Notes: a model not told the origin generated them from the letters alone. A DNA stretch of 64,000 nt from Patescibacteria group bacterium (GCA_030837225.1 JAUPKX010000005.1:8049-72048); one strand, 5' to 3'. Positions 15,656-64,000 are shown, counted from the stretch's first letter. Made by a program: numbers and translations.

Positions 15656-15687
15656 CGCTCTACGAGGGGCAGGGTATACTGTCCTCA

Positions 15688-16927: not shown

Positions 16928-16963
16928 TCAAGGCTTGGTCGGCGGCCCATGGTCTGAGGATTG

Positions 16964-16972
16964 TGGTATAAT
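16964..16972 (+). promoter_or_regulatory. Extended -10 promoter element (TGgTATAAT) just upstream of hicB.
   Basis: 'ttgtggtataatg' read directly. It ends 6-7 nt before the hicB ATG at 16979, suggesting a very short or absent leader. Confidence 0.35.
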
Positions 16973-16978
16973 GTGGCT

Positions 16979-17191: not shown

Positions 17192-17194
17192 TAT

Positions 17195-17419: not shown

Positions 17420-17448
17420 TCCAAAGGAGAGACCGATCGGAAGAGTCG

Positions 17449-20488: not shown

Positions 20489-21927
20489 GCAAACTCATTC
20501 TCGTAACCGGGGGCGCCGGCTTTGTCGGTTCGCACCTCGTGAAGCGTCTCGTTGCTGAAGGGCACCGAGTTATTTCGCTTGATAACTATTTCGCGGGATC
20601 GAGAGAGACTCATGTAGCTGGTGTCGATTATCGCGAAGGGCACACTAAAGATATCGAATCTCACGTGCCTGAGTCGCCAGACCTCGTGTTCCACCTTGGA
20701 GAGTACTCGCGTGTAGAGAAGAGCTTCGAAGACATTGAGACAGTGTGGGACCTTAATAAGACAGGAACGTTTGCTGTCCTTGAGTTTGTGCGTCGTCGAG
20801 GATCTAAGATCGTCTATGCCGGTTCCTCTACGAAGTTCGGTGACGATGGCGCGGGGCGCGATCAGAGTCCGTATGCATGGGCCAAGGCTACCAATACCGA
20901 GCTCGTAAAGAACTACTCATCGTGGTTCGGTATTCCGTACGCTATTACGTATTTCTATAACGTGTACGGACCGGGAGAGCGTGCCGGAAGTTTTGGAACA
21001 GTAATCGAGATTTTCCGCCAGAACTATTTGTCGGGACGACCTTTTACTATTACTGCGCCAGGAACGCAGCGACGCAACTTTACGCACGTAGAAGACATTG
21101 TTGAAGGCCTAGTGCTCGTTGGAGAGAAAGGAGAAGGTGACGAGTATGGTCTAGGTGACGAGCGTGCGTATGCGATTAAGGAGGTTGCAGAGCTTTTCGG
21201 TAGCTCGATAATTATGCTCCCGGAACGTCCCGGGAATCGTATGGGATCGAGTCTTGAGACTGCAAAAGCGCGTGCTCTTGGTTGGGAACCAAAGCGTCAT
21301 CTCGCAGACTATATCAAGAGTATTAAGGAGAGCGGTGAGATACGCATAAAGAAAGAAGCTCGAGTGCTTGTCTTCACTACAACCTTCTATCCAGTTGAGG
21401 GTCCTGCAGAAGAAGCGCTCTGCGAACTTATGAAGCAGTTGCCCGACGTACAGTTCGATATCGTAACGACCCTTTACACAAAGAAAGCAAAGGACGTGCA
21501 GTGTCCTGCAGCCAACGCAACGCTCCATCGTGTTGGGTGGGGAACACCGTTTGATAAGCTGCTTCTTCCGTTCCTGGGCGGAAGCATTGCCCGCAGGCTT
21601 GCACGGGAACACGAGTACCTATTTTCCTGGTCTGTCATGGCAAGCTACGGTACGCTCGCAGCACTTTCGGTGCGCAGGGACCGTAAGCTTCCGCTTTTGG
21701 TAACACTTGCCGACCAGTCTCTCGCTTTCCATGAGCGTCTCTTCCTCAGACTCGTTATAGGCAGTGTCGATCAGGTATATGCTTCCAAGCCCGAACAAGG
21801 ACAAAGGTTGGGATCGCTAGAGTCCCGTATGCGCGCACGCAGGACCTTGGGTGAGGGAGATGCGTTCGCGAACCAGATTCGTTTTGCTTACTCCCAGATC
21901 TTAAATAAGCGAGAGCGGAAGATATGA
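20485..21927 (+). CDS. NAD-dependent sugar-nucleotide epimerase/dehydratase, about 300 aa. It is fused to a roughly 180-aa C-terminal domain resembling the N-terminal half of a GT-B (GT4) glycosyltransferase.
   Basis: 'LVTGGAGFVGSHLVKRLVAEGHRVISLDNYFAGS' is UDP-xylose-synthase/4-epimerase-like. C-terminal 'RVLVFTTTFYPVEGPAEEA...' is paralogous to the N-terminus of the next gene, 'RVLIFSLNYYPRFIGGAEVA...'. Confidence 0.65.
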   Translation: MSKLILVTGGAGFVGSHLVKRLVAEGHRVISLDNYFAGSRETHVAGVDYREGHTKDIESHVPESPDLVFHLGEYSRVEKSFEDIETVWDLNKTGTFAVLEFVRRRGSKIVYAGSSTKFGDDGAGRDQSPYAWAKATNTELVKNYSSWFGIPYAITYFYNVYGPGERAGSFGTVIEIFRQNYLSGRPFTITAPGTQRRNFTHVEDIVEGLVLVGEKGEGDEYGLGDERAYAIKEVAELFGSSIIMLPERPGNRMGSSLETAKARALGWEPKRHLADYIKSIKESGEIRIKKEARVLVFTTTFYPVEGPAEEALCELMKQLPDVQFDIVTTLYTKKAKDVQCPAANATLHRVGWGTPFDKLLLPFLGGSIARRLAREHEYLFSWSVMASYGTLAALSVRRDRKLPLLVTLADQSLAFHERLFLRLVIGSVDQVYASKPEQGQRLGSLESRMRARRTLGEGDAFANQIRFAYSQILNKRERKI

Positions 21928-49158: not shown

Positions 49159-50067
49159 ATGGATGAGATAACTATTGGTGACAAGACATATGTCTCGTCA
49201 AAGCAGGCGGCAAAAATTACTGGTTACGCGAAAGACTATGTCGGTCAGCTTTGTCGAGAAGGGAGAGTAGAGGCTCGCTTAGTTGGCCGTAACTGGTATG
49301 TACTAGATTCAGCTATCCGAGAGCATAGATTTGGAAAGGAAGATGAAGTTGAGCTGGTAGTTAAACAGGAGCACGCCGTTACTGATAGAGCCTCAACATG
49401 GCAGAAGCCTCAGTATGTAGCTGAAACGCCTGTTTTAGTGCCTGAATTTAGCAATAAGGCAACAGAAACTGTGGGATCTCCGGCAATTGCTGATATGCAG
49501 TCTGCATGGAGAGAGTGGTTCGATGAGAAAAAGCCTCCACAGGTAGCGTTACCTGACGGGTCTGATGACTTTAAGGATGAGTATCTTCCAATAATCGTAC
49601 CAGAAACCGCTCCTGAGCCTGTTTTAGAGGCTCCAGCGATAGCGCAGACACAGAACGCTGACCAGGAAGAAATAGTCGCTATCTCACGAATTCGAAACCC
49701 TGAGCCAGAACCGCTAACAGTCGCAGAACAAGCAATACCGGAAGAAGAAAGAGTTGAGCTACATCGATCATATGCAACAGCGAACACTCCCCGCGAGGAA
49801 TACGAGGAAGTCTATCCAGAACAGCCGTTTGTTCGACAGGCACAGAGGCCAATAACTAAGCCAGCTGCTGTAGAGGTTAAGACATCGGGCAGCAGCATCG
49901 TCGTACGCGCACTCCTAGTCGTCGTATCTGTAGCTGCAATACTTACAGCGCTTATAGGAACAGGGAATGCGGAACAGCTTCTTTCAGGAACGAGCCTTGA
50001 TTACGGAGTGCAGAAGTCGATAGTAGACTTTCTCGGAGGAAAGAGCACGTATAAAAGTAGCTTATAA
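49159..50067 (+). CDS. Hypothetical protein with an N-terminal excisionase/MerR-like HTH-like domain, an acidic Pro/Glu-rich linker and a C-terminal TM helix. The N-domain is paralogous to the start of the downstream giant gene.
   Basis: 'SSKQAAKITGYAKDYVGQLCREGRVEARLVGRNWYV' fits the HTH_17-like pattern. C-terminal 'IVVRALLVVVSVAAILTALIG' is hydrophobic. Confidence 0.5.
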   Translation: MDEITIGDKTYVSSKQAAKITGYAKDYVGQLCREGRVEARLVGRNWYVLDSAIREHRFGKEDEVELVVKQEHAVTDRASTWQKPQYVAETPVLVPEFSNKATETVGSPAIADMQSAWREWFDEKKPPQVALPDGSDDFKDEYLPIIVPETAPEPVLEAPAIAQTQNADQEEIVAISRIRNPEPEPLTVAEQAIPEEERVELHRSYATANTPREEYEEVYPEQPFVRQAQRPITKPAAVEVKTSGSSIVVRALLVVVSVAAILTALIGTGNAEQLLSGTSLDYGVQKSIVDFLGGKSTYKSSL

Positions 50068-50679: not shown

Positions 50680-53600
50680 TTGAACTCTCTTCTCCAGAAA
50701 AATTTAATCTCAACGAAAGAGGCTTCTGCACTTTCTGGTTACAACGCCGACTACTTGTCGAGACTTTGTCGTGAGAAGAAAATTGCGAGTTCACAAGTTG
50801 GTCGCACGTGGCTGATTGAGAGAGCCTCACTCGAGGTTTTCATGGAGACTCAATTAGATAGGAAAATTGAGCTTGCTGAGAATCTTGCTCGGGAGAGGGA
50901 GCTTGAATATAGAAAGGCAAATAGTTCTGTCACCCAGGTTTTTGAGGCGGGGAATGATCTTGAGAATAAGATGCGCGTGGCAGCGAGTTCAATGCTTGGA
51001 GCTTTTTCCTCTGTACGCATACCACGTTCTATGCCAGTTATGAGTGGTCGTGCATTTGCTGCAGGACTTACTGCAGTCATACTCGGCGCTAGCGTAACAC
51101 TAGCGGGTAGTGGCGTTGTGGCACGCGCAGGTGAAATGTTATTGGCTTCAGCATTTGAGGTTCGCGCACTCGTTGTTACTGCTGTCTCCACATCAAACTC
51201 ACTTGCAGTAGAGAAGACTGCGGAATTTTCTAGAATTGCAGAAGATGAAATAAAAAAAGTAGACACATCGCTTGTTCGTGCGGCAGACACACGAGTGGCA
51301 ATGTTTCCCCTTACTCTCGGTGGAGTCATTGAGAATTCACACGAGCCGGTAGAGATGACTGAACTCGCGTATGCCCGTGCAAATGAAATCTTTGAAACGT
51401 ATCCCGAGCCTATTGCGTCCACGCAGACGGTTGAAAAAATCATGTATGCAGCAATGCACCCTAAAGAAGTGCTGGCAACAATTGCACGTGAGGCGATGTT
51501 TGCATACAGCCGACTTGGCGTGTACGCACTCAACGATATTCAAACCGTCCTCGCTCTTCACCTATATGGAGTTGAGGCGGCAGCGAACGGCCTCCTATCA
51601 GTTAGTGACAATACGAGGGATATCGCAGGACAGGCACCACTAGCTATCGGAAATGCATTTGTTACTACGTCCTCTGCAGTGCTGTCTTCGTACGAACATG
51701 CGGTCTACGCATATGTCGAGAACATTGATGTACTACCGAGCGCTATCACCGGTTTGGTATACGGGCTCGGGAACGGTATTGGCGGCTCAGTAGCGATGGG
51801 TGTACAGACTGCACCGGTTGCCTACGAAGAGAGCGTACTGGCCTTCGTAGAGGAGTCAGTATCTGCAGGATCGATGATCTCCGAAGGCTCGTTCGCCTTT
51901 GGAAAAGAAGCAGATAGAACGGTTTCAGGCCTTCTGGAAGCTGAGGACCGTGCCATAGTCCAGTCAGTAGAGAGTGTAAGGCTGGCCGTTACGAGTATTG
52001 AGAACACGACAGCAAGCGCAGCGCTCGCCATCGAATCAGTACCCTCAGTGGCTACTGACAAAGTCCTTGGAATTGTGGGAGGTATTGCACTTCGTATCGA
52101 GTCGACGGATACCAGCATGCTCTCAGCATCGCCGCTAGTTTCTCTTGATATTGATCGATTCATTCCGGGGTTCCTACGGAACGTAACTGCGGTTCTGGCG
52201 CATGCAGTGGGCAGCGCTTTCCACGGAATCTTCGGTCCGCTCGCTGGTTTCTTCGGCGCGTCGGAAGAAGTGGGACTCGCGGTTATCCCAAGCGATGGGA
52301 GTTCATTCTCTGGACCAAGTGGTGCAACCGGTACGGAAGAGGCAGTGAAAGGAAACACGACGGTCTATACCGGACCGGTAACCATCGTACGTAACGAATA
52401 CCCAACGGTGACGTACGGCGGGGTACCGCAGTCCTACGTCGACGAGCGCTACGAGTTCCTTCGCCGTACGCTTTATAACCGAATCGAAGATGTTTCAAAT
52501 GACGACACGTTCTACGGCGAGGTACGAGATAGCGGTATTTACGATAGCAGCATTGTTGATTCGACTTTTACCAATGGCGAAATCATCGATTCAACAATCA
52601 CTGGAGGAACTATCACGGGCGCTGCCCTCGATGTTTCGACCTCGACTATCACTGGCTCGCTAACTGTTAATGGAGACATCGCAGCTAATGCCATTGTCTC
52701 GACAAGCTCGACAAGTACGAACGCTACGTCAACGAATCTTTTTGCAACTAATGCATCCTTCACCAACCTTCTTGGCGGGAGTGCAACAATAACGAACGCA
52801 ACCTCGACATCGTTCTACGCAACACTCGCAACCATCGTTGATGGATTCTTCACGAACCTCACCGCGACACTCGCAACCATTACGAATGCGGTTATCACAA
52901 ACCTCACCGCAACGAACGCGACGCTCACGAATGCGACATCGACTAACGCTACGTCAACGAACCTCTTCGCCACCAACCTCACGGCTACGAGCGCAACCTC
53001 AACAAACCTCTTTGCTACAAGTGCACGCATCACGACCGGTATCATCGACGCGCTCACCTCACCGCTCGCAACCATAACCACTGCGATTGTCACAAACCTC
53101 ACGGCAACGAACTCAACGCTTACAAACGCAACCTCAACAAACTCGTTCGCACTTTCGTACCTCACCCCGTCCAGACTCTTGTCCGTCGGATCGAATGGCG
53201 TCGCAACCTCAACCAGCCTTTCCTCATGGGTTGCGGGTACCCTAAACCAACTCACCGTAACGGATAACGGTACCGGGGGAATCACACTCTCGCTCCCTTC
53301 GACCATTGCGATCGGCACCTCGCAGGTAACTACCATCCGAAGCGATGGTGCTACCTCGACCTTTGGTGGCGGTATTCAGGCCTCTATTGTCGAGGGAGGG
53401 CAGTATATCGCTGGTCCGTACGTCCTTGCTACCTCAACAACCGCTACCTCTGCATTCTCGGGCAATATTGCAGTTGGCAGGAATGCGACCTTTGGAACCA
53501 GTGCCTCTGATCTCCTTACGGTTAATAGCTCCGTAGCATCAAACCTCATTCCGACCACCAACAACACGTATGACTTCGGCTCAACCGCAAGCTACTGGCG

Positions 53601-56600
53601 CCGGGGCTATATAGACGACCTTACCGTTAACAATCTCTCGGCCGCATCGACTTCTATTGCAGGTACGGTTTCAAACTCGTTTACAATTAACGCCGACAAC
53701 GCGACGAACGACACGGAGGACGTAACACTCATTTTCAAGAGGGGCACCGCATCACCAAATGCGCTCATGACGTGGAATAGCTCAACGGATCGTTTTGAGT
53801 TCAACATGCCGGTATTCTCCGCAACCGGCCTCTTCACGAGCGCAACTTCGACAAACTTCGGCACCACGAACTTCACCCTTAACAGCAACACCTTCACGAG
53901 TCTTCTTGGTACGGGACTCTCGAACGTGAGCGGTGCACTTACGGTTGATTACGACGCCCTCGATTCCGACTTCTTCCGTCAGGGAGGGAACTCATACGCA
54001 ACTACTGCAATGCTCGGTACAAATGATGCTAACGATCTCGCGTTTGAGACGAATGGTACGACGAAGATGACGATCCTTTCGGGAGGGAATGTTGGTATCG
54101 GCACCACGACACCAACCGGCAGACTCTCCATTGTTGCGAGCACAACCGGGGACTCACTCGTGATAGCAAGCACTACGGGCGCCCGCATGCTCACCGTTAA
54201 TCCAGGCGGATCCCTCATCTTCTCTGCAACGGGCCAGTCATACAAAGTGGTGTCTGGCGCAGACGAATATGGCCCAGACATTTTCCTTAATCGCACAATA
54301 GGGACCGAAGCGACCGCGAACGAGCACGGCATCATCGATCGCAACCAATTTGGAAGGGCGACCAAGGCCTATAACTCGTACGATTCTCAAACATACTTCA
54401 CTGGTACGAGTAACTACGACCACTACGCCGGCTTCCAGGCGCGGGGCGTGATGAATTCATCCGGTACGCTGACGGACTACTACTCGTTCTACTCAGCGCC
54501 TCAAGCAAGTGCAGGAACCATAACGAACGTATACGGGCTCAAGGCAGCTAATCCAGCAGGTGCAGGTGCAGTTACGAACAACTACGGTGTCTATATTGAT
54601 AGTCAGACGAAGGGAACGAATAACTTTGCCATCTACACAGATGGCACCACGAAGTCCTATTTCGGAGGAAACGTCGGCATCGGTACAACGACACCATCTT
54701 CTCTCCTCGACCTGTATAAGAGCACGGACGGATACACCAAAATAACCGTACGGAACCCGAACACGGGTACTGATGCGTTAACTGGTATAGATTTCGTGCA
54801 GGACCTGGGCGGCGTGGGATCCTTGTACGCTACAGGAAATACCTTTGACGGAAATGCAGACTTTGGCGCAATGTCAGGCTTCTCGAATAGCCTCTGGTTA
54901 GACGCATCGTTTGAACTAACTGGAGGCTTGAAGCTCGTAGCACGCAATGGAGACATTGGCTTCTATGCAGGAAGTAGATCGACACAGAACGTAACAATAT
55001 CGGGTACGAATGGAAACTTAGGCGTTGGCTCAACCACGCCGTATGCAAGACTCTCTGTTAAGGGAGCAGGTACAACTACCGGTGTTAACTTCCAGACCAC
55101 CAACTCAAGCAACTCACCACTCTTTACGGTACTTGATAGCGGTAACGTTGGTATCGGTACTACAACACCTGCCGAGCTACTCACCATTGATAGCGGAAGT
55201 CTCCGTTTCGAGTCAGTAAGCGCAGGGAGAGGAATACTCGCCAGCAGTAACGGTGTTAACCAGGTGTTCTCACTTACGCGGCAGGATACGGTTGCGTCTG
55301 CCGACCTATCAATATCTGGGTACGGGGGGGTCGGTATTACGGGCGGAAGGACGTCATCTCCTGCTACATCTGCCTACCACTTGTACGTAAATAGTGCCGG
55401 CAACGTTGGTATCGGTTCTACCACTCCAGCTGAGAACCTCACGGTTAACGGAGCAATTCAGTGGGGTAACACAACTCCTTCTACAGGAACAGCAAATATC
55501 TATAACTCAGGACGGCTCGGCACATACAACAGTGGTGCGTCACCGCTTGCACAATACAATTACGTGCAACCAGCAACAGGGAAAGCGCTTGTTGTCTGGA
55601 ACGCAAACAGCAATATAGTTGCAGCGTTCGGTCAGACCGGTAGTGATACGAACACTAACTCCTATTTTGCAGGCAACGTGGGTATTGGTACTACAAGCCC
55701 AGCTCAGAATCTGCATATAGATCAGGGCACAGCAAGTACCCTCCCTATTATTCAGCTTAGCGGAGCAGGCGGAACCATCGCAAAAATTGGTCGGGCAAGT
55801 AATTTCATGAATGCCGGAACTGCCGCTGACCTAGGAATTAATGCTCCGACAAGTCAATCACTGTATCTCGGAGTGGGCGGCTCATCGTTTGTAACACTTA
55901 AATCGACAGGCAACGTGGGTATTGGAACAACGACGCCTATCGGCAAACTCACCGTCTACGAGGATTCTGACGCCGTGATGTACACCGCTAATCCTTCTGC
56001 CAATGTATTCTCAGAAAACTACATTGACACAACCAACAATGTTACCAACCACCGGTCCGTTGCGTACGCTCACCAGTTTTACACTTCTGGTAGCACGATA
56101 GCAGCAGCAACAGAGAAGATGCGTATACACCAAAATGGAAACGTCGGTATTGGTACTACCTCACCTGAAGCAGCGCTCACCGTTAATGGAGATATAAAGA
56201 CAAACGGTGGCTTTACGACATACGCAACAAATGAAGTGTTTAAGGCTATAAACGGCGGTACGAGTGCTGTGGCGGCTCGCTACGGCAATAGCAACAATGA
56301 TTTCTATGTCGGTACAGAAGGCAATACTGCGGGAGGCTACTTCACCGGTGCACTCGCAAATAGCTCTGTACTCTATAGTACCCGCGCAGTGCAGACCATC
56401 ATAGGAGGAGTATCGAGAATGATTATTGATACGTCAGGCAACGTTGGTATTGGTACGACCAGCCCAGAAGGGAAGCTTGATGTCAATGCTGGACTCGGGG
56501 TCTACTCATACATTGGAGGTTCAGTACTGGGACATAGAAGCATCCGTATGGGCGCTGACGCTAGTGGGTATGCAACGATTCAAGGCACAGGAAGAGGTAC

Positions 56601-59600
56601 ACAGATAGGGAGTTTCTTTAACATAACGCTACAGCCAGGCGGTGGCAACGTTGGTATTGGCACTGTGAGTCCTGGGGAAAAGTTAGAGGTTTCTGGAAAT
56701 ATAAAGCTTTCGACATCCGCTAGTTATCTAGCATTTGGCAATCCGAGTACTCCGCTTTACCTTGGTAGCGGAAACTCTTTATTGTTTTCTCCGGATAATA
56801 ATGAGCAATATGCAGTATTAAGGGGCTATGCTGGGGCTGTATTAGCGGTAGGAGGTAATCCGGGGCTGCTCTTAAACGCCAGTAGCAACGTCGGTATTGG
56901 CACGACGAACCCCGGGACCAAGCTCCATGTCCTCTCTACCAATGCCGGCGGAGACTCAAACACCCTCATGCTAGATAACGCTGGAGCATCCGGCATTACT
57001 ACCACGAGTCTCACGTTCGCGAACGGAGGAGCGGTAAAGGCAAGAATAACGGGTGCTGTGTATGGTGATGGATACCTCGCGTTCAACACGAATGACGATA
57101 CTGAGAAAATGCGTATTACCGCAGTAGGCAGGGTCGGTATTGGAACGACTACACCGCAAGGCAAATTCCACGTTAAGGGCTCAGATGGCGAATCCTTACT
57201 AAGAGTGTCTGGCGCAACAGGAGGTATAAGAATACGCCCGTATGTGGACGCAACCTCAGGCACCTACATTGAAAGTGTGAATACTGCAGAAAGTGCCTAT
57301 CTACCGTTGCGTCTTGAAGCCTCAACGACAATATTAGGCATAAACGGCAATGTCGGTATTGGTACAACCACACCGCTTTCTAAACTCCAGGTTTCAACAA
57401 GTGGTGCAGATGCGTTCAGTCTCGATCTTCTTACAGGAAGCTCTCACGATACCGGCATACGCATCGGACGTGGTAGTGGTGCTAATGGTGCAGGAATACA
57501 GATGGTGACTTCCGCTACAGACTATCTTAGTTTCTACGTAAATGGTTCCGCGCTCCCTGCTATTAATACAGCAGCTCAGATGGTGCTTACGGAGGGTGGC
57601 AACGTCGGTATTGGTACCACGGGACCGTTAGGAAAACTCCATGTCCTAACCTCTACCGACACCACACCAAACACCATTGCGGCGTTTGATGCACGGCACG
57701 CTGTCTTCGGTCCAGGCACTGTCGATGGTGTTTCTATCTCTAAGACAACGGGGGGTAGTGCCTACATCAGCTCCGTTCGTCCAGGTATTGCATGGGATCC
57801 GCTAGCTGTACAAGCAAGTACCTTTAGTGTTAATCCTAGTAGCGGTACCACAGCCTTCCATGTTACTGCGGCAAGCAACGTCGGTATCGGCACGGTATCT
57901 CCTGGAAGTAAATTACAAGTTAGTACGGGCAACTCTAGTTATGTAGCCAGCACAGCCGCCTTTTCTGTGCGGAAAAACGAAGAGGGGTACGGACTGTTTG
58001 TTGGTAATGCCAGCTCTGGCAACAGTTGGTTACAGGCAGGCTATTCCGACGGCTCACTACTCTATGACTTGATACTGCAACCTAATGGCGGAAAGGTTGG
58101 TATTGGTACTACGACGCCTTCGGAAAAGCTTTCGGTTGCAGGAGACATCTTTGTGAGTGATGCCACAGACCCAGAACTCAAACTCAATAAGACTAGCGGT
58201 ACTCAAAAAACATTCTCGTTTAATGTAAATAATGACAACGCATTTCAATGGCTAGACAGGACAGCAGGCCTTACGCGCTTGTACCTCACGACAGGCGGCA
58301 ACATGGGTATCGGGGACTACTACGGGGCAACTACCAATACCCCACAGAATAAGCTCTCAGTAGCAGGAAGTGCGTCGATCGGGTATGCCGTGGGTAGTGA
58401 TGTTGCGGCTCCTACCAATGGCCTCATCGTTAATGGCAACGTCGGTATTGGTACTACCACTCCACAGGAGGAACTATCAGTCTCGAAGAACGGCGTTCCA
58501 CAGATTAGCCTTGAAAATAGGAGCGGCACTACTCGTAACGCCCAAATCATATTCCGCAATACAGCGGGTCCTACGTGGCGGCTCGGTACGGACATGAGCA
58601 CCAATAACAATACGGACAACTTCCAAATCTATAAGGATGCCCTAGGTCTTCCGGTGCTTACTATCGACTCCGCGGGTGACGTCGGTATCGGTACCGGACA
58701 TACAAATCCACTCTACCCACTCGATGTAAATGGACTCGCTCTCATTCGCGGATACACGGTTGGTGTTACCGCCGCACTCGCTGATGCCTATAAGTTTACC
58801 CATGACGGCGGAACCTCATTCGTGAACAACCAAGGAGGGAGCTTTGGTGTCGGCACAACGACCCCAACAGTTGAAATGGAAATTGGTGGTAGCAGCTCGC
58901 CATCATTACGTTTGCGTCCGTATTTCGCAGGCGCTCCTGACGCAAGCGGGTACTACACAACAATTAATGCGGCGTACTCTGATGAGGCAATGAATCTTAG
59001 TGTTGGTGGCTACAAGGTGCTCTCAACACTCGGCTACGACACTCCGACTCAGTTGCTTCTCTACACAGGCAACACCGAGCGATTGCGCATTAATTCCTCA
59101 GGCAACGTTGGTATTGGTACCTCGAACCTCTTTAAGCCCCTTACGGTTGAAGTAGGAACTGCGGGAGGTGTTAATCAGGGAATTGTAATAAACAGCTCAC
59201 ACGCTTTCGGTAGCGGCCAGGGAACGGCTGCAGCAGCGCTTGTGTTCGCGCGCAATCGCACTATAGACACCTCATCTTTGTATGCTATGGCGCAGATCGA
59301 TGGAGGAAATGAGAGCGAAACCACGAGTGCATACGGCTACCTTGCGTTCTCAACTGCGAACAGTGGCGGAACGCTGGTGGAGCGAATGCGCACTTCGTCC
59401 TCAGGCAACGTCGGTATTGGTACCACCACTCCAGACTCAAAACTCAATATCCAGATGGCGGGAGATGGAACGGGACTTGCTATAAATTCGAGCTACTCAG
59501 CAGGAGGATACAAAAAAATCATTGACGCCGGTCAGACTGGTTCGGACGGGTATCTCAAAGTGAACGACGCGCTCGGTGCCACGGTGAGTTACTTGAGTGG

Positions 59601-62600
59601 CTACACTTCGAGTCCTTCATATTTCTTGAGTAGTGTCGGTATTGGTACAAGTACCCCGGTAAGTAAGTTCAGTGTGTATCAAGCATCAGGTGCAGGAAGG
59701 AGCATTGCCGAATTCTCCAATGGTAACAGGGACCGGATGCTCCAGGTCGTACATGATATTTCTGGAGACTCAACCTCTTACATCGGTCTCAATGCCCGAG
59801 AATTTGGATCGACTCTTGGACGTGACTTCGTCATTCAGACAGGAGGGACTGAAAGAATGCGCGTAGCGTATTCAACAGGCAACGTCGGTATTGGTACCGT
59901 GAATCCCGGCGCAACGCTCGACGTTAAGAGCCAGATCAACCTAACTAATGCAACCGGTAATTCGATGGTAGGAGTCAGGGGGACTGAGTTCGGATATGCT
60001 GCGGGCTACAAGGCGCTGCAGATAGGAGCTACATCTGGCACCTACACCGTAAGTATCGGCTACGATCCGTCGACCAACGCAAGCCCAGCATTCACGGGGG
60101 ACGGCAGTGAGGTTATCTTCAGGAACGGCGTGAAGTTCCTAACGCCGAACGCTGCGAATAATAGCTATCTCAGCACCATGACGATGCTGAATGGCAACGT
60201 CGGTATTGGCGAGACTGCTCCAAGTGAGAAACTCGTTGTTGCAGGGCAGGGAACAGGCAGGATGCTCGTTGGAGACGTAGGGTTCGGTGACGGGTACACG
60301 GGCCTTTCGATGAATGGCGTACTTTCCACCACGAATTACAACCTCTTAGGCTCGCCTGGTCAGGCGCACTTTTGGATTAATCGTGCAACAGGAGGGAATA
60401 TCAGCTTCCGTGAGAATAACGGTACCGACCAGATGACTATTGCGTCAGGTGGTAACGTTGGTATTGGTGTAACTGCCCCTGACGGCAAGCTTCATATTCT
60501 CAACAATACGGCCTCGCAAGCGTTAAGTAGCGGTAGTATTCGGCTCGCCGGTTCCGCATACGCATCTTCAGGATGGGCAATGCGCATACCTGATGACGGA
60601 TCTACGGGAAATTTGTACTTCGACAGGGAATACGCCGGCTGGGCTTCAACCCCTGTCCTTATGTTGCAACGATCTACAGGCAACGTAGGTATTGGCACAA
60701 CAAACCCTACCGCTAAGCTAACGTTGAATGGAACTGCCGGAGCTAATCCAAATGCTGGTGCAGAGATTGAGTATACAAATGCGCTTATTTTCCAATCAAG
60801 CAGCGCACATTCCGTTGGTGCAATTAAAACAGTGCAACCAACTGGGTACTATGTGGATGCTGCCGACATGACTTTCTCTACAGGATACGGCAGTTTAACT
60901 GAACGTATGCGTATTCAGGGCAGCACAGGCAACGTCGGTATTGGCACCACAACTCCATCCGGAACCCTTGATATATACAAAGCAGGCAATGCCACCCTTA
61001 ATATAACGGGTACTAACATCGCGGGCATAAACCTGAAGGGTGATAATGGTAGTGGATTTGCAAACATAAACACCTACAACGACGGTACCTTGCGTATAGG
61101 GGCAAGCGTCTCTGGATACAACTCAGGCACAACAGATCTTGTGATTAAGAATGGTTATGTTGGTATGGGTACTGCAAGTCCGCTAGCCAGGTTACAGGTT
61201 GGTGATAGTGCATCTCTCACTAATTATCAAGGTGCAACTGTAGGTATCGTACGGCCTGCCGGCTCAGGCTCATGGTTAGAGTTAGCTGACAACACAACTT
61301 ACGGCTCGGCGTTCCGTATTTCGCAGGATTCAAATAGTGGAATAGCTTTTAACTCTAATGGTCGTGATATTGGTTTTAGGGCAAGCGGCTATAGTACTGC
61401 CATTGCCGATGCGCAGCTTGTTTTGAAGTCGTCGGGTAATGTCGGTGTCGGCGCCCAAATTCCGCTGGCAAAATTACACGTACAGCAAGCGCTACCAACT
61501 AGCATTGGCAGTTTGCCATCAAATGTCGGCCTAATCTTAGATTCAAACACTCACAACTACTTGCTATTTAGAAACACCGCCGATAATAGTACGTATTCCG
61601 GACTTCAATTCCAAGATAATAATGTCGGGGGATATTTGGTATTCCAAAATTTTAGTGGCGGCGTCACAAGCGACAGCATGCTCTTTGGTACATATCAGGA
61701 CTTTGTCTTCCAAACTGGTACTTCGGAAACAGTTGGGGGCAAGAGCACAGTTATGACGATTAAACAGACTGGAAACGTTGGTATTGGTACAACCAATCCT
61801 CTCGCTATAGATGGCGGTGCTGCAACACGCTTTCACACTAAAGTTACGGGTGGAACAGGGAATATTGAAGTGGCTCGATTTGAAGGAGGCGACGATACCG
61901 ATAACACCTACGCAGTGTTGCGCGTAAACCATAACAACGATCGCGGTTTCTTTGTGAAAGGTGGGCGGCAGACAGGGGACACGGCCATAGCTACCATGGG
62001 ACTCACAAACAATGGAGGAGCAATGACAGACATCATGACATTCCTCGGCAGCAACGTTGGTATTGGAAATACCTCTCCAGGCGAAAAACTCACCATTGAA
62101 GGCAACAGTGCTGCCATGCTCATTCAGACGGCATCTGATCCTACGGTCTATCGAGCAAAGATCACTGCTAACTACAACTATACGAACTCAGTACTCTTCA
62201 CGGGACTCAACAACACGGAAATTATTGGCCAGTATGCGTATAACGTTACGGTAGGTAATTCGTCAGGTAACGTTGGTGTCGGTACAACAGGTCCAACTCA
62301 GAAGTTCTCTATTCTCGCCACGGGCATATCTAATCAATTCGAACTTCGCAATAATAATCAGGCCCTTTGGATTCGCCAAGGATACAAATCGGATGGAACC
62401 GCTACCCCCGCCGCAGACACAAATAATGTGCAGTTCCAGTCAAGTGGAAGCTCTAGCGGTACCTTCTCCTTCACTAGCGGAAACGATGAAGTGTTGCGTA
62501 TGACACTTGGTAGTAGTGGTATACGATTCAATGCCTATGGAGCAGGTACGCTCGTGACTGACGCTTCAGGAAATATAACCGCATCATCTGACGAACGTCT

Positions 62601-64000
62601 CAAGGACATAGAGGGGGAGTTCACTCGTGGTCTGGATGATCTCATGAACATCAACCCCATTAACTATCGCTGGAAAGCGTCAACTGGATTAGATACAGTT
62701 AATAGCTATAGCGGATTCTCAGCACAGGATGTTCAGAATGCTATTCCTGAGGCCATCGATACTGATCCTCAAGGGTATCTCACACTCTCTGATCGTCCGA
62801 TTCTTGCAGCATCCGTTAATGCCATTAAGGAGCTCAACCTTAGAACCCTTTCGCTCGCACCTAGTGCACAGAACCAGGAAGCACACTCGCTCGCTGTTTC
62901 AAGCGACGCCTCAATCGCTGGCATACTCACCGTTACTGGAATCGGAACCTTTAGCGACTCGCTTACTGCGGCAAGCGTGCTTACGGATGGTTCTGTAACA
63001 GCACTATCGTTCCTCACAGGAACGGACGGAACTCTTCCACAAGAAGTCCTTACGGGAGGCAACGCAGATCTCTTCAAGATGGCGAGCTACGCTATAACAG
63101 GTATACAGGCACTCTCCGAGCGTACTGACCTCCTTGCGACTCGTATTGATGAGATTGATGCCCGCGTAACAGCACTCGAGAACGGCTCTACAGCGGACGA
63201 GATATCCGGCGCCGTTGGCCTTACGGTTGCAACCATAAAGAGCGCACTCCAGACCCTCGGTATCTATCTTGAAAACGGGGTAGCTACATTCGAGACCCTC
63301 GTATTCCGCCAGCTTGCGGTTGCCAAGGACACCAATGGCGACTCCTCAGCAGGAAGCGAGACCATCCTTGCGGGCAACACGGTTGTTGAAGTAGAGAACC
63401 CCTACGTCCTTCCAACCTCAAAGATCTTTGTTACCTTCACGGGACCGATTCAAGGCGCTTGGTACATCAGCAACAAAGAGGAAGGGAAGTTCCGGGTAAC
63501 GCTTGCAACAGGCCAGTCCGCAGACGTATCCTTCGACTACTTCATCCTTCAGACTGAAGGCCAGCTAGCGTCCCCTGGCGCTGCGGCGCCAATACAGACT
63601 CCGAACGACCCAGCTCCATCGAACGATCCGCTCCCTCCTGTCTTCCCAGGTGAGGGAACAGGCACCACAACACCGGTTATGGGCTCTGGAGACACAACAC
63701 CGCCTTCTATCACCTTAAACGGCCCTGCAGCGCGCGAAATAGACCAAGGTGCCACTTGGATTGATCAAGGCGCTACTGCCTCAGATGAGACCGATGGCGA
63801 CCTCACAAGCTCCATACAGGTCCAAGGAACTGTTGATACGGGTACACCAGGCACCTATACGGTATCGTACTCGGTATCAGACGCAGCAGGGAATGAGGCG
63901 CATGTATCCAGGATAGTCTCAGTGCAGGTTGTATCAGAGCCAGCACCAAGTCCAGAACCGGCGCCAGAGCCAGCACCAAGCCCAGAACCGGCGCCAGCAC
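50680..64000 (+). CDS. Giant repeat-rich membrane-anchored surface / fibre-like protein, 5' partial: it runs off the window end, so at least 4,440 codons lie in the window. It is absent from the supplied ORF track because no stop codon occurs. The start is probably TTG at 50680; the first in-frame ATG is at 50842.
   Basis: Manual translation in the frame whose codon starts are congruent to 1 mod 3. A TAA lies at 50653-50655, then there is no stop through 64000. The frame was re-verified at 50992, 52441, 55441, 58441, 61441 and 63901. The product has a coherent domain architecture, detailed in the sub-features. Confidence 0.8.
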   Translation, partial: MNSLLQKNLISTKEASALSGYNADYLSRLCREKKIASSQVGRTWLIERASLEVFMETQLDRKIELAENLARERELEYRKANSSVTQVFEAGNDLENKMRVAASSMLGAFSSVRIPRSMPVMSGRAFAAGLTAVILGASVTLAGSGVVARAGEMLLASAFEVRALVVTAVSTSNSLAVEKTAEFSRIAEDEIKKVDTSLVRAADTRVAMFPLTLGGVIENSHEPVEMTELAYARANEIFETYPEPIASTQTVEKIMYAAMHPKEVLATIAREAMFAYSRLGVYALNDIQTVLALHLYGVEAAANGLLSVSDNTRDIAGQAPLAIGNAFVTTSSAVLSSYEHAVYAYVENIDVLPSAITGLVYGLGNGIGGSVAMGVQTAPVAYEESVLAFVEESVSAGSMISEGSFAFGKEADRTVSGLLEAEDRAIVQSVESVRLAVTSIENTTASAALAIESVPSVATDKVLGIVGGIALRIESTDTSMLSASPLVSLDIDRFIPGFLRNVTAVLAHAVGSAFHGIFGPLAGFFGASEEVGLAVIPSDGSSFSGPSGATGTEEAVKGNTTVYTGPVTIVRNEYPTVTYGGVPQSYVDERYEFLRRTLYNRIEDVSNDDTFYGEVRDSGIYDSSIVDSTFTNGEIIDSTITGGTITGAALDVSTSTITGSLTVNGDIAANAIVSTSSTSTNATSTNLFATNASFTNLLGGSATITNATSTSFYATLATIVDGFFTNLTATLATITNAVITNLTATNATLTNATSTNATSTNLFATNLTATSATSTNLFATSARITTGIIDALTSPLATITTAIVTNLTATNSTLTNATSTNSFALSYLTPSRLLSVGSNGVATSTSLSSWVAGTLNQLTVTDNGTGGITLSLPSTIAIGTSQVTTIRSDGATSTFGGGIQASIVEGGQYIAGPYVLATSTTATSAFSGNIAVGRNATFGTSASDLLTVNSSVASNLIPTTNNTYDFGSTASYWRRGYIDDLTVNNLSAASTSIAGTVSNSFTINADNATNDTEDVTLIFKRGTASPNALMTWNSSTDRFEFNMPVFSATGLFTSATSTNFGTTNFTLNSNTFTSLLGTGLSNVSGALTVDYDALDSDFFRQGGNSYATTAMLGTNDANDLAFETNGTTKMTILSGGNVGIGTTTPTGRLSIVASTTGDSLVIASTTGARMLTVNPGGSLIFSATGQSYKVVSGADEYGPDIFLNRTIGTEATANEHGIIDRNQFGRATKAYNSYDSQTYFTGTSNYDHYAGFQARGVMNSSGTLTDYYSFYSAPQASAGTITNVYGLKAANPAGAGAVTNNYGVYIDSQTKGTNNFAIYTDGTTKSYFGGNVGIGTTTPSSLLDLYKSTDGYTKITVRNPNTGTDALTGIDFVQDLGGVGSLYATGNTFDGNADFGAMSGFSNSLWLDASFELTGGLKLVARNGDIGFYAGSRSTQNVTISGTNGNLGVGSTTPYARLSVKGAGTTTGVNFQTTNSSNSPLFTVLDSGNVGIGTTTPAELLTIDSGSLRFESVSAGRGILASSNGVNQVFSLTRQDTVASADLSISGYGGVGITGGRTSSPATSAYHLYVNSAGNVGIGSTTPAENLTVNGAIQWGNTTPSTGTANIYNSGRLGTYNSGASPLAQYNYVQPATGKALVVWNANSNIVAAFGQTGSDTNTNSYFAGNVGIGTTSPAQNLHIDQGTASTLPIIQLSGAGGTIAKIGRASNFMNAGTAADLGINAPTSQSLYLGVGGSSFVTLKSTGNVGIGTTTPIGKLTVYEDSDAVMYTANPSANVFSENYIDTTNNVTNHRSVAYAHQFYTSGSTIAAATEKMRIHQNGNVGIGTTSPEAALTVNGDIKTNGGFTTYATNEVFKAINGGTSAVAARYGNSNNDFYVGTEGNTAGGYFTGALANSSVLYSTRAVQTIIGGVSRMIIDTSGNVGIGTTSPEGKLDVNAGLGVYSYIGGSVLGHRSIRMGADASGYATIQGTGRGTQIGSFFNITLQPGGGNVGIGTVSPGEKLEVSGNIKLSTSASYLAFGNPSTPLYLGSGNSLLFSPDNNEQYAVLRGYAGAVLAVGGNPGLLLNASSNVGIGTTNPGTKLHVLSTNAGGDSNTLMLDNAGASGITTTSLTFANGGAVKARITGAVYGDGYLAFNTNDDTEKMRITAVGRVGIGTTTPQGKFHVKGSDGESLLRVSGATGGIRIRPYVDATSGTYIESVNTAESAYLPLRLEASTTILGINGNVGIGTTTPLSKLQVSTSGADAFSLDLLTGSSHDTGIRIGRGSGANGAGIQMVTSATDYLSFYVNGSALPAINTAAQMVLTEGGNVGIGTTGPLGKLHVLTSTDTTPNTIAAFDARHAVFGPGTVDGVSISKTTGGSAYISSVRPGIAWDPLAVQASTFSVNPSSGTTAFHVTAASNVGIGTVSPGSKLQVSTGNSSYVASTAAFSVRKNEEGYGLFVGNASSGNSWLQAGYSDGSLLYDLILQPNGGKVGIGTTTPSEKLSVAGDIFVSDATDPELKLNKTSGTQKTFSFNVNNDNAFQWLDRTAGLTRLYLTTGGNMGIGDYYGATTNTPQNKLSVAGSASIGYAVGSDVAAPTNGLIVNGNVGIGTTTPQEELSVSKNGVPQISLENRSGTTRNAQIIFRNTAGPTWRLGTDMSTNNNTDNFQIYKDALGLPVLTIDSAGDVGIGTGHTNPLYPLDVNGLALIRGYTVGVTAALADAYKFTHDGGTSFVNNQGGSFGVGTTTPTVEMEIGGSSSPSLRLRPYFAGAPDASGYYTTINAAYSDEAMNLSVGGYKVLSTLGYDTPTQLLLYTGNTERLRINSSGNVGIGTSNLFKPLTVEVGTAGGVNQGIVINSSHAFGSGQGTAAAALVFARNRTIDTSSLYAMAQIDGGNESETTSAYGYLAFSTANSGGTLVERMRTSSSGNVGIGTTTPDSKLNIQMAGDGTGLAINSSYSAGGYKKIIDAGQTGSDGYLKVNDALGATVSYLSGYTSSPSYFLSSVGIGTSTPVSKFSVYQASGAGRSIAEFSNGNRDRMLQVVHDISGDSTSYIGLNAREFGSTLGRDFVIQTGGTERMRVAYSTGNVGIGTVNPGATLDVKSQINLTNATGNSMVGVRGTEFGYAAGYKALQIGATSGTYTVSIGYDPSTNASPAFTGDGSEVIFRNGVKFLTPNAANNSYLSTMTMLNGNVGIGETAPSEKLVVAGQGTGRMLVGDVGFGDGYTGLSMNGVLSTTNYNLLGSPGQAHFWINRATGGNISFRENNGTDQMTIASGGNVGIGVTAPDGKLHILNNTASQALSSGSIRLAGSAYASSGWAMRIPDDGSTGNLYFDREYAGWASTPVLMLQRSTGNVGIGTTNPTAKLTLNGTAGANPNAGAEIEYTNALIFQSSSAHSVGAIKTVQPTGYYVDAADMTFSTGYGSLTERMRIQGSTGNVGIGTTTPSGTLDIYKAGNATLNITGTNIAGINLKGDNGSGFANINTYNDGTLRIGASVSGYNSGTTDLVIKNGYVGMGTASPLARLQVGDSASLTNYQGATVGIVRPAGSGSWLELADNTTYGSAFRISQDSNSGIAFNSNGRDIGFRASGYSTAIADAQLVLKSSGNVGVGAQIPLAKLHVQQALPTSIGSLPSNVGLILDSNTHNYLLFRNTADNSTYSGLQFQDNNVGGYLVFQNFSGGVTSDSMLFGTYQDFVFQTGTSETVGGKSTVMTIKQTGNVGIGTTNPLAIDGGAATRFHTKVTGGTGNIEVARFEGGDDTDNTYAVLRVNHNNDRGFFVKGGRQTGDTAIATMGLTNNGGAMTDIMTFLGSNVGIGNTSPGEKLTIEGNSAAMLIQTASDPTVYRAKITANYNYTNSVLFTGLNNTEIIGQYAYNVTVGNSSGNVGVGTTGPTQKFSILATGISNQFELRNNNQALWIRQGYKSDGTATPAADTNNVQFQSSGSSSGTFSFTSGNDEVLRMTLGSSGIRFNAYGAGTLVTDASGNITASSDERLKDIEGEFTRGLDDLMNINPINYRWKASTGLDTVNSYSGFSAQDVQNAIPEAIDTDPQGYLTLSDRPILAASVNAIKELNLRTLSLAPSAQNQEAHSLAVSSDASIAGILTVTGIGTFSDSLTAASVLTDGSVTALSFLTGTDGTLPQEVLTGGNADLFKMASYAITGIQALSERTDLLATRIDEIDARVTALENGSTADEISGAVGLTVATIKSALQTLGIYLENGVATFETLVFRQLAVAKDTNGDSSAGSETILAGNTVVEVENPYVLPTSKIFVTFTGPIQGAWYISNKEEGKFRVTLATGQSADVSFDYFILQTEGQLASPGAAAPIQTPNDPAPSNDPLPPVFPGEGTGTTTPVMGSGDTTPPSITLNGPAAREIDQGATWIDQGATASDETDGDLTSSIQVQGTVDTGTPGTYTVSYSVSDAAGNEAHVSRIVSVQVVSEPAPSPEPAPEPAPSPEPAPA
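52560..53170 (+). repeat. Thr/Asn/Ala/Leu-rich low-complexity segment of the giant protein, with quasi-periodic 'ATSTNLFATN' / 'LTATNATLTN' units. It is dense in N-x-T/S sequons.
   Basis: Translation: '...TNATSTNLFATNASFTNLLGGSATITNATSTSFYATLATIVDGFFTNLTATLATITNAVITNLTATNATLTNATSTNATSTNLFATNLTATSATSTNLFATSA...'. Confidence 0.6.
54084..62300 (+). repeat. Array of about 30 divergent tandem protein repeats, about 70-100 aa each, within the giant gene. Each is marked by the motif (S/G)GNVGIGTTxP followed by xKL(x)V.
   Basis: The nucleotide word 'ggcaacgt(c/t)ggtat(t/c)gg' recurs near 54084, 54664, 55150, 55410, 55672, 55905, 56141, 56436, 56645, 56887, 57130, 57341, 57600, 57885, 58095, 58436, 58678, 59101, 59404, 59640, 59878, 60193, 60455, 60676, 60928, 61150, 61436, 61775, 62052 and 62270. 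Several copies share identical 20-23-nt stretches. Confidence 0.75.
62587..62856 (+). other. Peptidase S74 / intramolecular chaperone auto-processing domain (endosialidase-type CIMCD), internal to the giant protein.
   Basis: 'SSDERLKDIEGEFTRGLDDLMNINPINYRWKASTGLDTVNSYSGFSAQDVQNAIPEAIDTDPQGYLTLSDRPILAASVNAIKELN' matches the family consensus (S-D-x-R-L-K, Y-RWK, GF-AQ-V, P-E, GYL, AIKEL). Confidence 0.75.
63701..63921 (+). other. DUF5011/Ig-like surface domain within the giant protein, downstream of the S74 domain.
   Basis: 'PPSITLNGPAAREIDQGATWIDQGATASDETDGDLTSSIQVQGTVDTGTPGTYTVSYSVSDAAGNEAHVSRIVSV' follows the DUF5011 pattern (ItLnG...G..y.DpGatA.D..DGdlt..v...g.vdt...GtYtvtY.vtD.aGN.a...R.V.V). 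Confidence 0.5.
63937..64000 (+). repeat. Tandem 30-nt repeat encoding an (EPAPSPEPAP)n Pro/Glu linker. It continues past the window edge.
   Basis: 'gagccagcaccaagtccagaaccggcgcca' at 63937-63966 and 'gagccagcaccaagcccagaaccggcgcca' at 63967-63996. Confidence 0.7.

Follow-up and report, generated by a model that had tools for sequence, protein, structure and literature searches.

A giant Patescibacteria gene with conserved ends and a mosaic array of β-helix modules, proposed to encode a cell-surface fibre

What does a 13-kb gene filled with glycine-rich repeats contribute to a Patescibacteria (CPR) cell, and how has such a repeat array evolved? The window, that is the whole stretch of 64,000 nucleotides that was analysed, carries frame 0 without a stop from 50656 to its end (4,448 codons by ORF scan and translation). 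A preliminary description had reported only the array, which turns out to sit within a far larger gene whose start lies near 50680 and whose end lies beyond the window. The TTG codon at this position is a candidate start, at which no obvious ribosome-binding site is seen. Complete relatives of the protein have 3,484–4,524 amino acids; their C-termini carry the same Pro-rich tail and lie no more than about 50 residues from the point aligned with the last residue of the window. We propose, with a probability of about 0.7 for the reading together with its whole mechanism, that the region is the shaft of a giant CPR cell-surface fibre. The features of the locus are as follows.

49159..50067, +, upstream gene of 302 aa, HTH-like domain at the N-terminus as in the giant protein, transmembrane segment at the C-terminus
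50680..63999, +, giant fibre gene (proposed), likely TTG start at 50680, at least 4,440 aa, running past the window end
50707..50853, +, HTH_17/excisionase-like domain, aa 18-66, predicted cytoplasmic (Pfam E 1.3e-5)
51049..51129, +, single hydrophobic segment following Arg residues, aa ~132-158 (Kyte-Doolittle scan)
51133..54015, +, conserved proximal ectodomain (predicted topology), aa ~160-1120
54016..62586, +, array of 33 β-helix modules (fold by homology), aa 1121-3977, each with the capping-loop motif GNVGIGTTxPxxKLxV
62587..62757, +, Peptidase_S74 core, aa 3978-4034 (PF13884, 36.3 bits against a 22-bit cutoff)
62758..63255, +, rest of the chaperone region with a long helix at aa ~4139-4175 (AF2 models)
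63262..63549, +, confidently predicted β-sandwich domain, aa ~4203-4298 (AF2)
63709..63924, +, Bact_surface_Ig-like (DUF5011) domain, aa 4352-4423 (Pfam E 3.9e-21)
63935..63997, +, Pro-rich PAPEPAPSPE tail, a 30-nt tandem repeat

Modules homologous to MAT and phage tail fibres

The array is readily recovered at the protein level. A unit profile HMM, for whose building one of the detected units was left out, finds 33 units in the giant protein (i-E <1e-3, aa 1121–3915) and none in 20 shuffled versions of it. The strict peptide GNVGIGT occurs 17 times, and a relaxed [GSN]x[VMIL]G[IVML]G motif 31–32 times between nt 54085 and 62266, the first and last copies of the capping-loop motif and also the span given in the preliminary description; an 'xTERMRI' strand usually precedes the motif. 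The earlier figure of about 30 tandem units becomes 33, and these are modules of variable length rather than a strict period. Neighbouring units are spaced by a median of 82 aa (range 43–194, CV 0.30), with 24 of 32 spacings inside the proposed 68–100 aa (205–300 nt), whereas random placement yields a CV of 0.97 and about 4.7 spacings in that range; the observed values were reached in none of 100,000 trials.

Tandem Repeats Finder did not detect an array of about 250 nt, so the periodicity lies at the level of the protein and not of the DNA. Copies of the repeat DNA are 60–73% alike over 48–66 nt centred on the motif. When the motif is masked, no two units of the gene resemble each other, and the best paralogue scores (~43) equal the background. 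A recently amplified tandem array was rejected on these three observations, in agreement with what had been proposed. The short DNA words said to be shared between copies are also there: the 23-nt word GGCAACGTCGGTATTGGTACCAC has two exact copies (57598 and 59404) and 12 more with at most three mismatches, and shuffles have none. The composition of aa 1144–3977 is rich in Gly (14.7%), Thr (11.8%), Ser (10.1%), Ala (8.9%) and Asn (7.9%), and Cys is absent.

Which known proteins share this unit? No profile in the Pfam and NCBIfam releases used matches it, and among all PDB sequences only the MAT (mosaic adhesive trimer) fibres of Bdellovibrio bacteriovorus, which bind its prey, reach E <0.01 with the unit profile (8OND Bd2133, 6e-23 over three stretches; 8OML Bd1334, 7e-14; 8OJN Bd3182, 7e-10; 8OL4 Bd2439, 5e-8). 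Phage T5 pb1 and endosialidase are not reached at E up to 1. An alignment of aa 1121–1242 with the tip of Bd3182 puts NVGIGTTTPTGRLS on RVGVGTTAPTSALH, a peptide that agrees in length and in sequence pattern with the capping loop published as R656–H669 (PMC10769870). The capping loops tabulated in the supplement of the MAT paper follow the same pattern (PMC10769870). PHROG tail-fibre families match the giant protein with 12–14 stretches, among them 9942 (E 5e-60, 14 stretches) and 18345. Together with the Peptidase_S74 domain behind the array, these matches bear out the triple-β-helix or tail-fibre type that had been suspected.

The MATs (Bd3182, Bd2133, Bd1334, Bd2439; Caulton et al. 2024, PMC10769870) are the closest parallel. 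They share the module and its capping-loop motif, include an S74-terminated subfamily with an SDxxxK motif, combine one conserved end with a diversified one, much as the N-terminal end here is conserved and the array variable, and are presented at the surface of a bacterium living on other bacteria. MATs have about 1,000 aa and a handful of modules, whereas the giant protein is four times longer, with at least 4,440 aa and 33 modules. MATs belong to a diderm cell and begin with a signal peptide and a conserved β-rich N-terminal domain of about 130 aa; in place of the signal peptide the giant protein starts with an HTH_17-like domain, predicted cytoplasmic, and a transmembrane anchor, followed by a different proximal part of about 960 aa. 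S74 lies inside its chain, with two β-sandwich domains and a Pro-rich tail behind it. The supplementary files of PMC10769870, including the table of other lineages, make no mention of Patescibacteria, Parcubacteria or Saccharibacteria, and no fibre of the S74 or MAT module type was described from Patescibacteria in the literature searched. Giant proteins of 6,681–7,725 aa that carry the module do occur in Omnitrophota and Taylorbacteria MAGs, while the very large surface proteins reported from Patescibacteria and Omnitrophota have other adhesion domains (FN3, integrin, Ca-adhesin repeats).

Chaperone, membrane anchor and chromosomal setting

The S74 domain opens with an SDERLK motif that contains the predicted nucleophile Ser3978 (62587–62589) and Lys3983 (62602–62604). 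Both residues are invariant in an alignment of 42 sequences and present in 6 of 6 relatives whose C-termini were inspected. The AF2 model of the domain (pLDDT 85–96) has as its best Foldseek match the MyRF ICA domain 7DC3 (E 2.8e-5, probability 1.0), followed at weaker scores by the endosialidase chaperone 3GW6 and by 3GUD. Autocleavage is predicted at Ser3978, and the helix at aa ~4139–4175 probably forms a coiled coil in the modelled chaperone region. S74 does not end the protein: behind it come about 420 well-conserved residues, of which the 250 or so after the chaperone helices comprise the β-sandwich, the DUF5011 Ig-like domain (pLDDT ~97; Foldseek matches to Big_3 and other Ig-like domains) and the Pro-rich tail. 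In orthologues this tail ends the protein without an LPXTG motif or a transmembrane segment. Conservation along the whole protein peaks in the stretch around the β-sandwich, with 83–92% identity over aa 4201–4350 in the relatives L002, L012 and P0283 and 84% over aa 4151–4300 in L001. Such conservation of some 420 residues past S74 is odd for a part that would be discarded, and counts against the explanation we prefer.

Do the modules trimerise? In all solved structures of module homologues three chains intertwine (PMC10769870), and by analogy with these homologues and from the S74 domain we expect trimerisation along the fibre. The AF2 monomer model leaves the last three modules unstructured (pLDDT <50), so that the β-helix fold of the modules is assigned solely through sequence homology. 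This, the internal position of S74 and a Thr/Ser/Asn-rich composition that fits a glycosylated coat would suit a single-chain, beads-on-a-string coat or S-layer-like component, in which the modules are not trimeric and S74 is a functionless relic. We regard this as quite improbable, since the solved homologues are trimers throughout, the Ser and Lys are invariant in the 42 homologues and retained in the inspected full-length relatives, which favours retained catalysis, and S74 is followed by a long helix of the kind usual in the trimeric chaperone.

At the other end, the HTH_17 match (25.8 bits) falls just under the 27-bit cutoff, and TIGR01764 matches with E 2e-4; the domain is in frame and kept in relatives, among them a homologue from Saccharibacteria and, in L001, a tandem paralogue. 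Over 4,448 aa, the Kyte-Doolittle score exceeds 1.5 only in 19-aa windows starting at aa 132–140 and, borderline, at aa 161 (1.53). The segment at aa ~132–158 would act as a signal-anchor with the N-terminus inside, and the combination of HTH and one transmembrane segment is conserved in frame out to Saccharibacteria. The proximal ectodomain beyond it includes a stretch of 'xTNxT' repeats with a period of 5 aa at nt ~52700–53150. By analogy with ToxR-type membrane regulators, the HTH domain might possibly tie the fibre to DNA or transcription, and the product of the 302-aa upstream gene may be a putative partner protein. The ICA domain of MyRF is likewise preceded by the same loop motif (PMC10769870). 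MyRF is a eukaryotic ER-membrane transcription factor whose cleavage frees its DNA-binding part; in the predicted topology of the giant protein, the membrane separates HTH from S74, so that, unlike in MyRF, the HTH could not be set free by cleavage.

Does the gene belong to the cell or to a phage? Upstream in the window lie a 16S rRNA gene with insertions and the genes for GatB, Obg, SecA and MurB. Downstream in the relatives L012 and L003 come GAPDH, pilin-like genes, an epimerase and transketolase, and the same genes adjoin a homologous C-terminal fragment of the fibre gene in L134. With GAPDH, transketolase and pilin-like genes downstream in all three, the locus is syntenic and chromosomal: the gene is cellular and sits on a Patescibacteria chromosome. 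The module is nonetheless at home in phages. Besides the strong PHROG tail-fibre matches, it is found in tail fibres of the cyanophages S-CRES1 and S-TIM5 and of pelagiphages, its motif occurs in at least 120 IMG/VR contigs, and NCBI names homologues 'tail fiber domain-containing protein'. Phage fibres and tailspikes such as the L-shaped fibre pb1 of T5 (4UW8), K1F endosialidase (3GW6) and the GA-1 appendage (3GUD), which mature by means of a C-terminal intramolecular chaperone, share the S74 domain and its fold, and phage fibres resemble the proposed fibre in their triple-β-helix shaft and mosaic evolution. That the gene is a tail-fibre gene of a prophage or its remnant, and not of a cellular surface structure, is still extremely improbable: phage genes are absent nearby, the locus is syntenic, the HTH domain and membrane anchor are common to several Patescibacteria classes, and 4,440 aa exceed the phage matches many times over. 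The last modules are matched by only 11 of 50,697 deposited phage records.

Conserved ends and a mosaic middle

Within the gene it is the array that is hypervariable and mosaic. In five comparators the flanks are 56–92% identical and the array only 17–38%; the N-terminal ~1,150 aa, which include the proximal ectodomain, retain 47–92% identity in relatives. The number of units varies between 13 and 34 (13, 18, 22, 24, 26, 26, 33 and 34), a two-fold difference between complete relatives. The preliminary description had seen in the divergence of the copies an old, selectively maintained array. This part is not supported, as the array is replaced or reshuffled in relatives; it is a fast-turning mosaic rather than a stably maintained tandem repeat.

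Single modules recur at 50–93% identity in other positions and in other proteins. A counterpart of at least 50% identity exists for 15 of the 33 modules, either where the position does not correspond or in a protein with no further relationship to this one; for the other 18, the small sample that was searched contains no close counterpart. The order can be inverted, with unit 13 resembling unit 23 of L001 and unit 17 its unit 5. Similarity between genomes begins and ends at the motifs, where identity changes in sharp steps.

Could substitutions alone have produced this pattern? The array of the same fibre might serve evasion instead of binding and be shaped by point divergence under diversifying selection from phage or host pressure and not by module exchange. 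Most array identity (17–38%) is indeed near the paralogue background, and for the 18 modules without a counterpart in the small sample, saturation by fast substitution is possible. Yet modules of 50–93% identity are non-colinear or sit in non-orthologous proteins, identity steps are sharp at the motifs, and unit number differs two-fold between complete relatives. We therefore consider point divergence unlikely and favour a process in which entire modules are swapped, acquired or lost and are joined at the conserved motif, under which close relatives would share both ends and differ in the shaft.

The codons of the motif are more uniform than the peptide demands: 22 of 23 copies use GGT for its second Gly, where the background is 0.30 (P 7e-11). 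Seven related genomes have the same bias. It had been suggested that the identical words mediate recombination, and motif junctions, varying unit numbers and codon uniformity lend comparative support to this. In its strongest form, the motif DNA word (…AAC GTC GGT ATT GG…) would be a crossover site at which whole β-helix modules are shuffled, added or dropped from a large shared repertoire, making the gene a combinatorial device for host range or antigenic variation. We put this forward as a speculative minority view; the junctions at the motif could instead reflect selection for intact structural modules and not recombination at the DNA word.

A candidate fibre for host attachment

In the proposed fibre, an N-terminal cytoplasmic HTH-like domain and one transmembrane helix would anchor the chain in the membrane. 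Some 3,800 residues would be extracellular, first the conserved proximal part and then about 33 short β-helix modules, each opening with a GNVGIGTTxPxxKL loop that would correspond to the MAT capping loop. Three chains would intertwine into a trimeric β-helix fibre, about 0.1–0.25 micrometres long when scaled from MAT structures. The Peptidase_S74 intramolecular chaperone would nucleate folding from the C-terminal side and then cut itself off at Ser3978, freeing the conserved C-terminal fragment, so that the last of the variable modules would form the exposed distal tip. The most likely targets of such a fibre would be structures on the surface of a host cell, a partner cell or a substrate.

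The module family extends far beyond this gene, with 240,132 cluster representatives and proteins of up to 7,920 aa and up to 86 stretches. Since the Pfam and NCBIfam releases used have no model for the unit, much of the family is annotated as 'hypothetical' or by its terminal domains only. Conserved ends, a mosaic middle, motif junctions and codon uniformity make this gene a tractable case of how giant repeat genes evolve.

To our knowledge, few other host-recognition factors are known for ultra-small epibionts. The way in which CPR/Patescibacteria recognise and hold their hosts is described in PMC11623550 as largely unknown beyond type IV pili. A fibre that might match the cell in length, and that shares its modules with the proteins by which Bdellovibrio and phages recognise bacterial surfaces, would offer a concrete and testable candidate for host attachment, with a shaft and tip that vary between close relatives. 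If crossover at the motif did take place, a single 13-kb gene would provide ultra-small epibionts with a combinatorial device for host range or antigenic variation.

A regular array of variable modules

Frame 0 of the + strand stays open for 4,448 codons, from nt 50656 to the final base of the window, and a TTG at 50680 is the earliest usable start of the giant gene. A Pfam search has no match on the repeats of its product and recognizes three domains, all encoded on the + strand:

aa 18-66, HTH_17-like domain
aa 3978-4034, Peptidase_S74 (S74)
aa 4352-4423, Bact_surface_Ig-like (DUF5011) domain

NCBIfam adds only an excisionase-type HTH, and the product has just one hydrophobic segment, aa 132-158. 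The GNVGIGTTxPxxKLxV motif, of which a preliminary description had noted about 30 copies, spans nt 54085 to 62266. Its strict form GNVGIGT occurs 17 times and a relaxed form 31-32 times, while an HMM built from the units detects 33 at i-E <1e-3, one of them outside the building set, and none in 20 shuffles of the protein. The spacing has a median of 82 aa (CV 0.30); 24 of the 32 spacings fall within the 205-300 nt proposed earlier, and 100,000 random placements never reach this regularity. The array is thus real and non-randomly spaced. What has to be given up is a strict tandem period, since modules of variable length (43-194 aa) fit the data better. Their extended signature comprises, in order, an '…LxFxT…' strand, 'xTERMRI' and 'xxSGNVGIGTTxPxxKLxV'. 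In composition the array is rich in Gly, Thr, Ser, Ala and Asn, much as the described Gly/Thr/Asn/Ser-rich rod, and Cys is absent.

At the DNA level, the 23-nt word that had been singled out is present in two exact copies and in 12 more with up to three mismatches (shuffles, 0), and DNA similarity between copies beyond the motif is only 60-73%, which agrees with the claim of identical short words in divergent surroundings. Recent tandem amplification can be ruled out, because Tandem Repeats Finder (TRF) detects no array of about 250 nt and a motif-masked comparison within the gene yields no mutually similar pair of units.

A second repeat with a 5-residue period (…TNLTA TNATL TNATS TNLFA…) is found at window 52700-53150, aa about 640-850. 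In the DNA it appears as families spaced 15 nt and a 45-nt TRF hit. The region is conserved in the related loci L002 and L012 (60-85% identity, aa 601-900), and no family match was found for it.

Capping loops and the S74 cassette

Which structural element does the motif represent? PHROGs matches are to the tail-fibre families 9942 (E 5e-60, 14 stretches) and 18345. A PDB sequence search with the array hits exclusively structures of the Bdellovibrio mosaic adhesive trimer (MAT) fibres. With the 33-unit profile these are 8OND (Bd2133; 6e-23, three stretches), 8OML (Bd1334; 7e-14), 8OJN (Bd3182; 7e-10) and 8OL4 (Bd2439; 5e-8), with no non-MAT match at E <0.01. MAT fibres are intertwined trimeric beta-helices whose edges bear 'capping loops', in Bd3182 R656-H669 and F752-H765 (Caulton et al. 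2024, PMC10769870). The window sequence NVGIGTTTPTGRLS aligns to RVGVGTTAPTSALH of Bd3182, which resembles the published proximal loop in length and pattern, and its motif shares the pattern of the loops LVGIGTATPAAPLH, AVGIGTTNPSGILH and, from MyRF, RVGINTDRPDEALV, listed in the supplement (PMC10769870). Matching the MAT capping loops, the repeat motif is, by sequence comparison, an element already known from the structures of S74-type trimeric fibres, in line with the triple-beta-helix tail-fibre character first suspected. In a monomeric AF2 model of the last three modules plus S74 the modules are unstructured (pLDDT <50) and the S74 part alone is informative. An unstructured monomer would be expected of an obligate trimer, yet is no proof of one.

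The S74 match exceeds its Pfam cutoff, and neither Ser nor Lys of its motif, S3978-DERL-K3983, varies across 42 homologues or the relatives inspected. AF2 models the domain with pLDDT 85-96; the top structural match is the intramolecular chaperone auto-processing (ICA) domain of MyRF (E 2.8e-5), followed by weaker matches to the endosialidase chaperone 3GW6 and to GA-1 3GUD. A MyRF-like release of the HTH by S74 cleavage is rejected because of the predicted topology.

While S74 is terminal in the classical cases, it is internal here. Modelling places behind it a long helix, a confidently predicted beta-sandwich, the DUF5011 Ig-like domain and a Pro-rich tail. The beta-sandwich stretch is the most conserved part of the protein, with 83-92% identity over aa 4201-4350 in L002, L012 and the related protein P0283 and 84% over aa 4151-4300 in locus L001. 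Complete relatives measure 3,484-4,524 aa and end in a Pro-rich tail no more than about 50 residues from the position aligned with the last residue of the window; a few tens of residues at most are thus absent from it. No LPXTG motif or transmembrane segment was found at their C-termini. The PAPEPAPSPE tail of the window protein is encoded by a 30-nt tandem repeat (window 63935-63997); orthologue tails differ in length and composition, being PAPE-, PAPAPA- or acidic-rich.

Conserved ends and a mosaic middle

Comparison with five relatives (L001, L002, L012, P0283 and a further protein, P0307) reveals a sharp partition. Over the N-terminal ~1,150 aa identity is 41-92%, P0283 being closest with 56-92%; over the last ~400 aa it is 58-92% in four of the five, P0307 diverging again beyond about aa 4200. 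From just past the first motif to about the S74 site, identity drops abruptly to 17-38% in all five, the 3' edge varying by pair from ~aa 3950 (L012) to ~aa 4040 (L001, L002). Of two metagenome scans, the one run with a mid-array query recovered no relatives and the one run with the C-terminal query a single good locus, L012. Repeat number among relatives, suggested earlier as a check, indeed varies, with HMM unit counts of 13, 18, 22, 24, 26, 26, 33 (window) and 34; the 13-unit relative is the 2,696-aa protein of the Saccharibacteria locus L009.

For individual modules, close matches exist at other positions and in other proteins. Among about 280 family members, 15 of the 33 have a counterpart with >=50% identity across >=70% of the length, often in an otherwise non-orthologous protein (90% in P0380, for example). 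Unit 0 pairs with unit 4 of L003 (74% identity) and unit 2 with units of L002 and L004 (88-91%), while units 13 and 17 pair with units 23 (70%) and 5 (61%) of L001, that is, in inverted order. In four pairs followed residue by residue, similarity runs from one GNVGIG motif to the next.

The motif is also set apart by its codons, synonymous choices being more uniform inside it than in the rest of the array (window 54085-62283). Its second Gly is GGT in 22 of 23 copies (background 0.30, P 7e-11) and its Asn AAC in 21 of 23 (background 0.46). The GGT bias is repeated in seven related genomes (L001-L005, L009, L012), with 23/23 in L001 and 12/12 in L012; unrelated viral contigs (n = 120) show it less strongly, at 56%. 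The uniformity may stem from recombination or gene conversion, from translational accuracy or from another cause.

Taken together, conserved ends, displaced counterparts, similarity bounded by motifs and codon uniformity point to whole modules being exchanged, gained and lost, the junctions falling at the motif. The conserved DNA word is a plausible site of recombination, as the longest exact match here is 23 nt, close to the lower limit for RecA-type exchange; alternatively, selection may act on the integrity of the modules or on translational accuracy.

Gene setting, family and the proposed fibre

SecA, MurB, Obg and GatB are encoded closely upstream of the giant gene, and its relatives come from Patescibacteria/Paceibacterota MAGs. 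In L012 and L003 the orthologue is followed by GAPDH, pilin-like, ribulose-phosphate epimerase and transketolase genes, as is a homologous C-terminal fibre-gene fragment in L134. The giant gene is chromosomal, conserved and carried by a CPR bacterium, and its context rules out a prophage origin. The window also contains a 16S rRNA gene split by insertions and a group I intron (7183-10730), typical of CPR rRNA operons:

7183-7763 and 8361-9460, Rfam SSU matches
7826-8482, 218-aa ORF mostly inside the 16S gap
9923-10730, group I intron
9978-10706, 242-aa ORF mostly inside the intron
11119-11194, tRNA-Ile

Diversity-generating retroelements have been linked to CPR surface proteins in the literature; a scan of ten neighbouring genes revealed no reverse transcriptase.

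The upstream neighbour (49159-50067) encodes a 302-aa protein that shares the N-terminal HTH-like domain (KxxxSxKxAxxxxGYxxDYxxxLCRE…VGRxW), followed by an acidic Pro-rich linker and a C-terminal transmembrane segment. In L001, from a related MAG, a second giant ORF (11955-21443, >3,163 aa, 18 motif copies) directly follows the orthologue and begins with its own such HTH and transmembrane segment. Fibre genes can thus occur in tandem, and these genomes seem to use membrane-tethered HTH domains repeatedly as N-terminal anchors.

In L012 (12559-13089, 14344-14877), type IV pilin-like (N_methyl) genes follow the fibre gene at a distance of a few kb, and in L134 (9937-10431, 15505-16005 and, a weak match, 16123-16596) they follow the fibre-gene fragment at a similar distance; in both loci they are interspersed with core carbon-metabolism genes, so that both kinds of surface-appendage gene are linked there.

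The fibre gene of L134 (1139-6682, JGI Ga0120162_1000094) is apparently intein-split. Its first ORF ends in S74 and a weak Hint match, four ORFs intervene (one Bro-N), and the next has a C-intein-like start, '…VYDIEVEGTHNFVGNDIFAHN|TY', before capping-loop motifs, S74 and DUF5011. Many homologues of 430-640 aa share such a start, P0138, P0144 and P0156 among them. A giant surface-protein gene of this kind may be interrupted by a split intein or by an intein into which genes have been inserted. As homologues begin with a C-intein, an intein was considered for the window gene and rejected, Pfam giving no intein match.

A search with the repeat HMM, as had been advised, shows the module to be widespread. 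The unit profile matches 240,132 cluster representatives at E <=1e-3 and 24,101 at E <=1e-30. Protein length among them reaches 7,920 aa and the number of stretches 86; the giants with a named source are from Taylorbacteria, Omnitrophota and a Burkholderiales-labelled MAG, where they are annotated as hypothetical or DUF5011. Only 11 of 50,697 deposited phage genomes match, and a degenerate DNA pattern finds the motif frequently in IMG/VR contigs. Among the large proteins of this very large and under-annotated family, that of the window is typical. Module, capping loop and S74 chaperone are already known. Literature searches for the literal motif returned nothing, and those linking Patescibacteria to tail fibres, S74 or giant genes yielded no family description. 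Nor did the literature searched contain the Patescibacteria architecture of HTH-transmembrane anchor, about 33 modules and internal S74 with conserved C-terminal cassette, or module-level mosaicism, motif junctions and codon uniformity at the motif.

How long might such a fibre be? The Bd3182 tip measures 60 Å per 135 aa, Bd2133 142 Å per 370 aa, and full-length Bd3182 about 550 Å (PMC10769870). The resulting factor, roughly 0.4-0.7 Å for each residue, would give the 2,857-aa array a length of 1,100-2,000 Å. By this analogy its length would be comparable to the diameter of an ultra-small cell. Cleavage at Ser3978 would leave a mature fibre that is conserved at the end next to the membrane and variable along its shaft and at its tip. 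A conserved proximal end with a variable tip is the arrangement that MAT fibres use for prey recognition, and the fibre encoded here is proposed to be built likewise.
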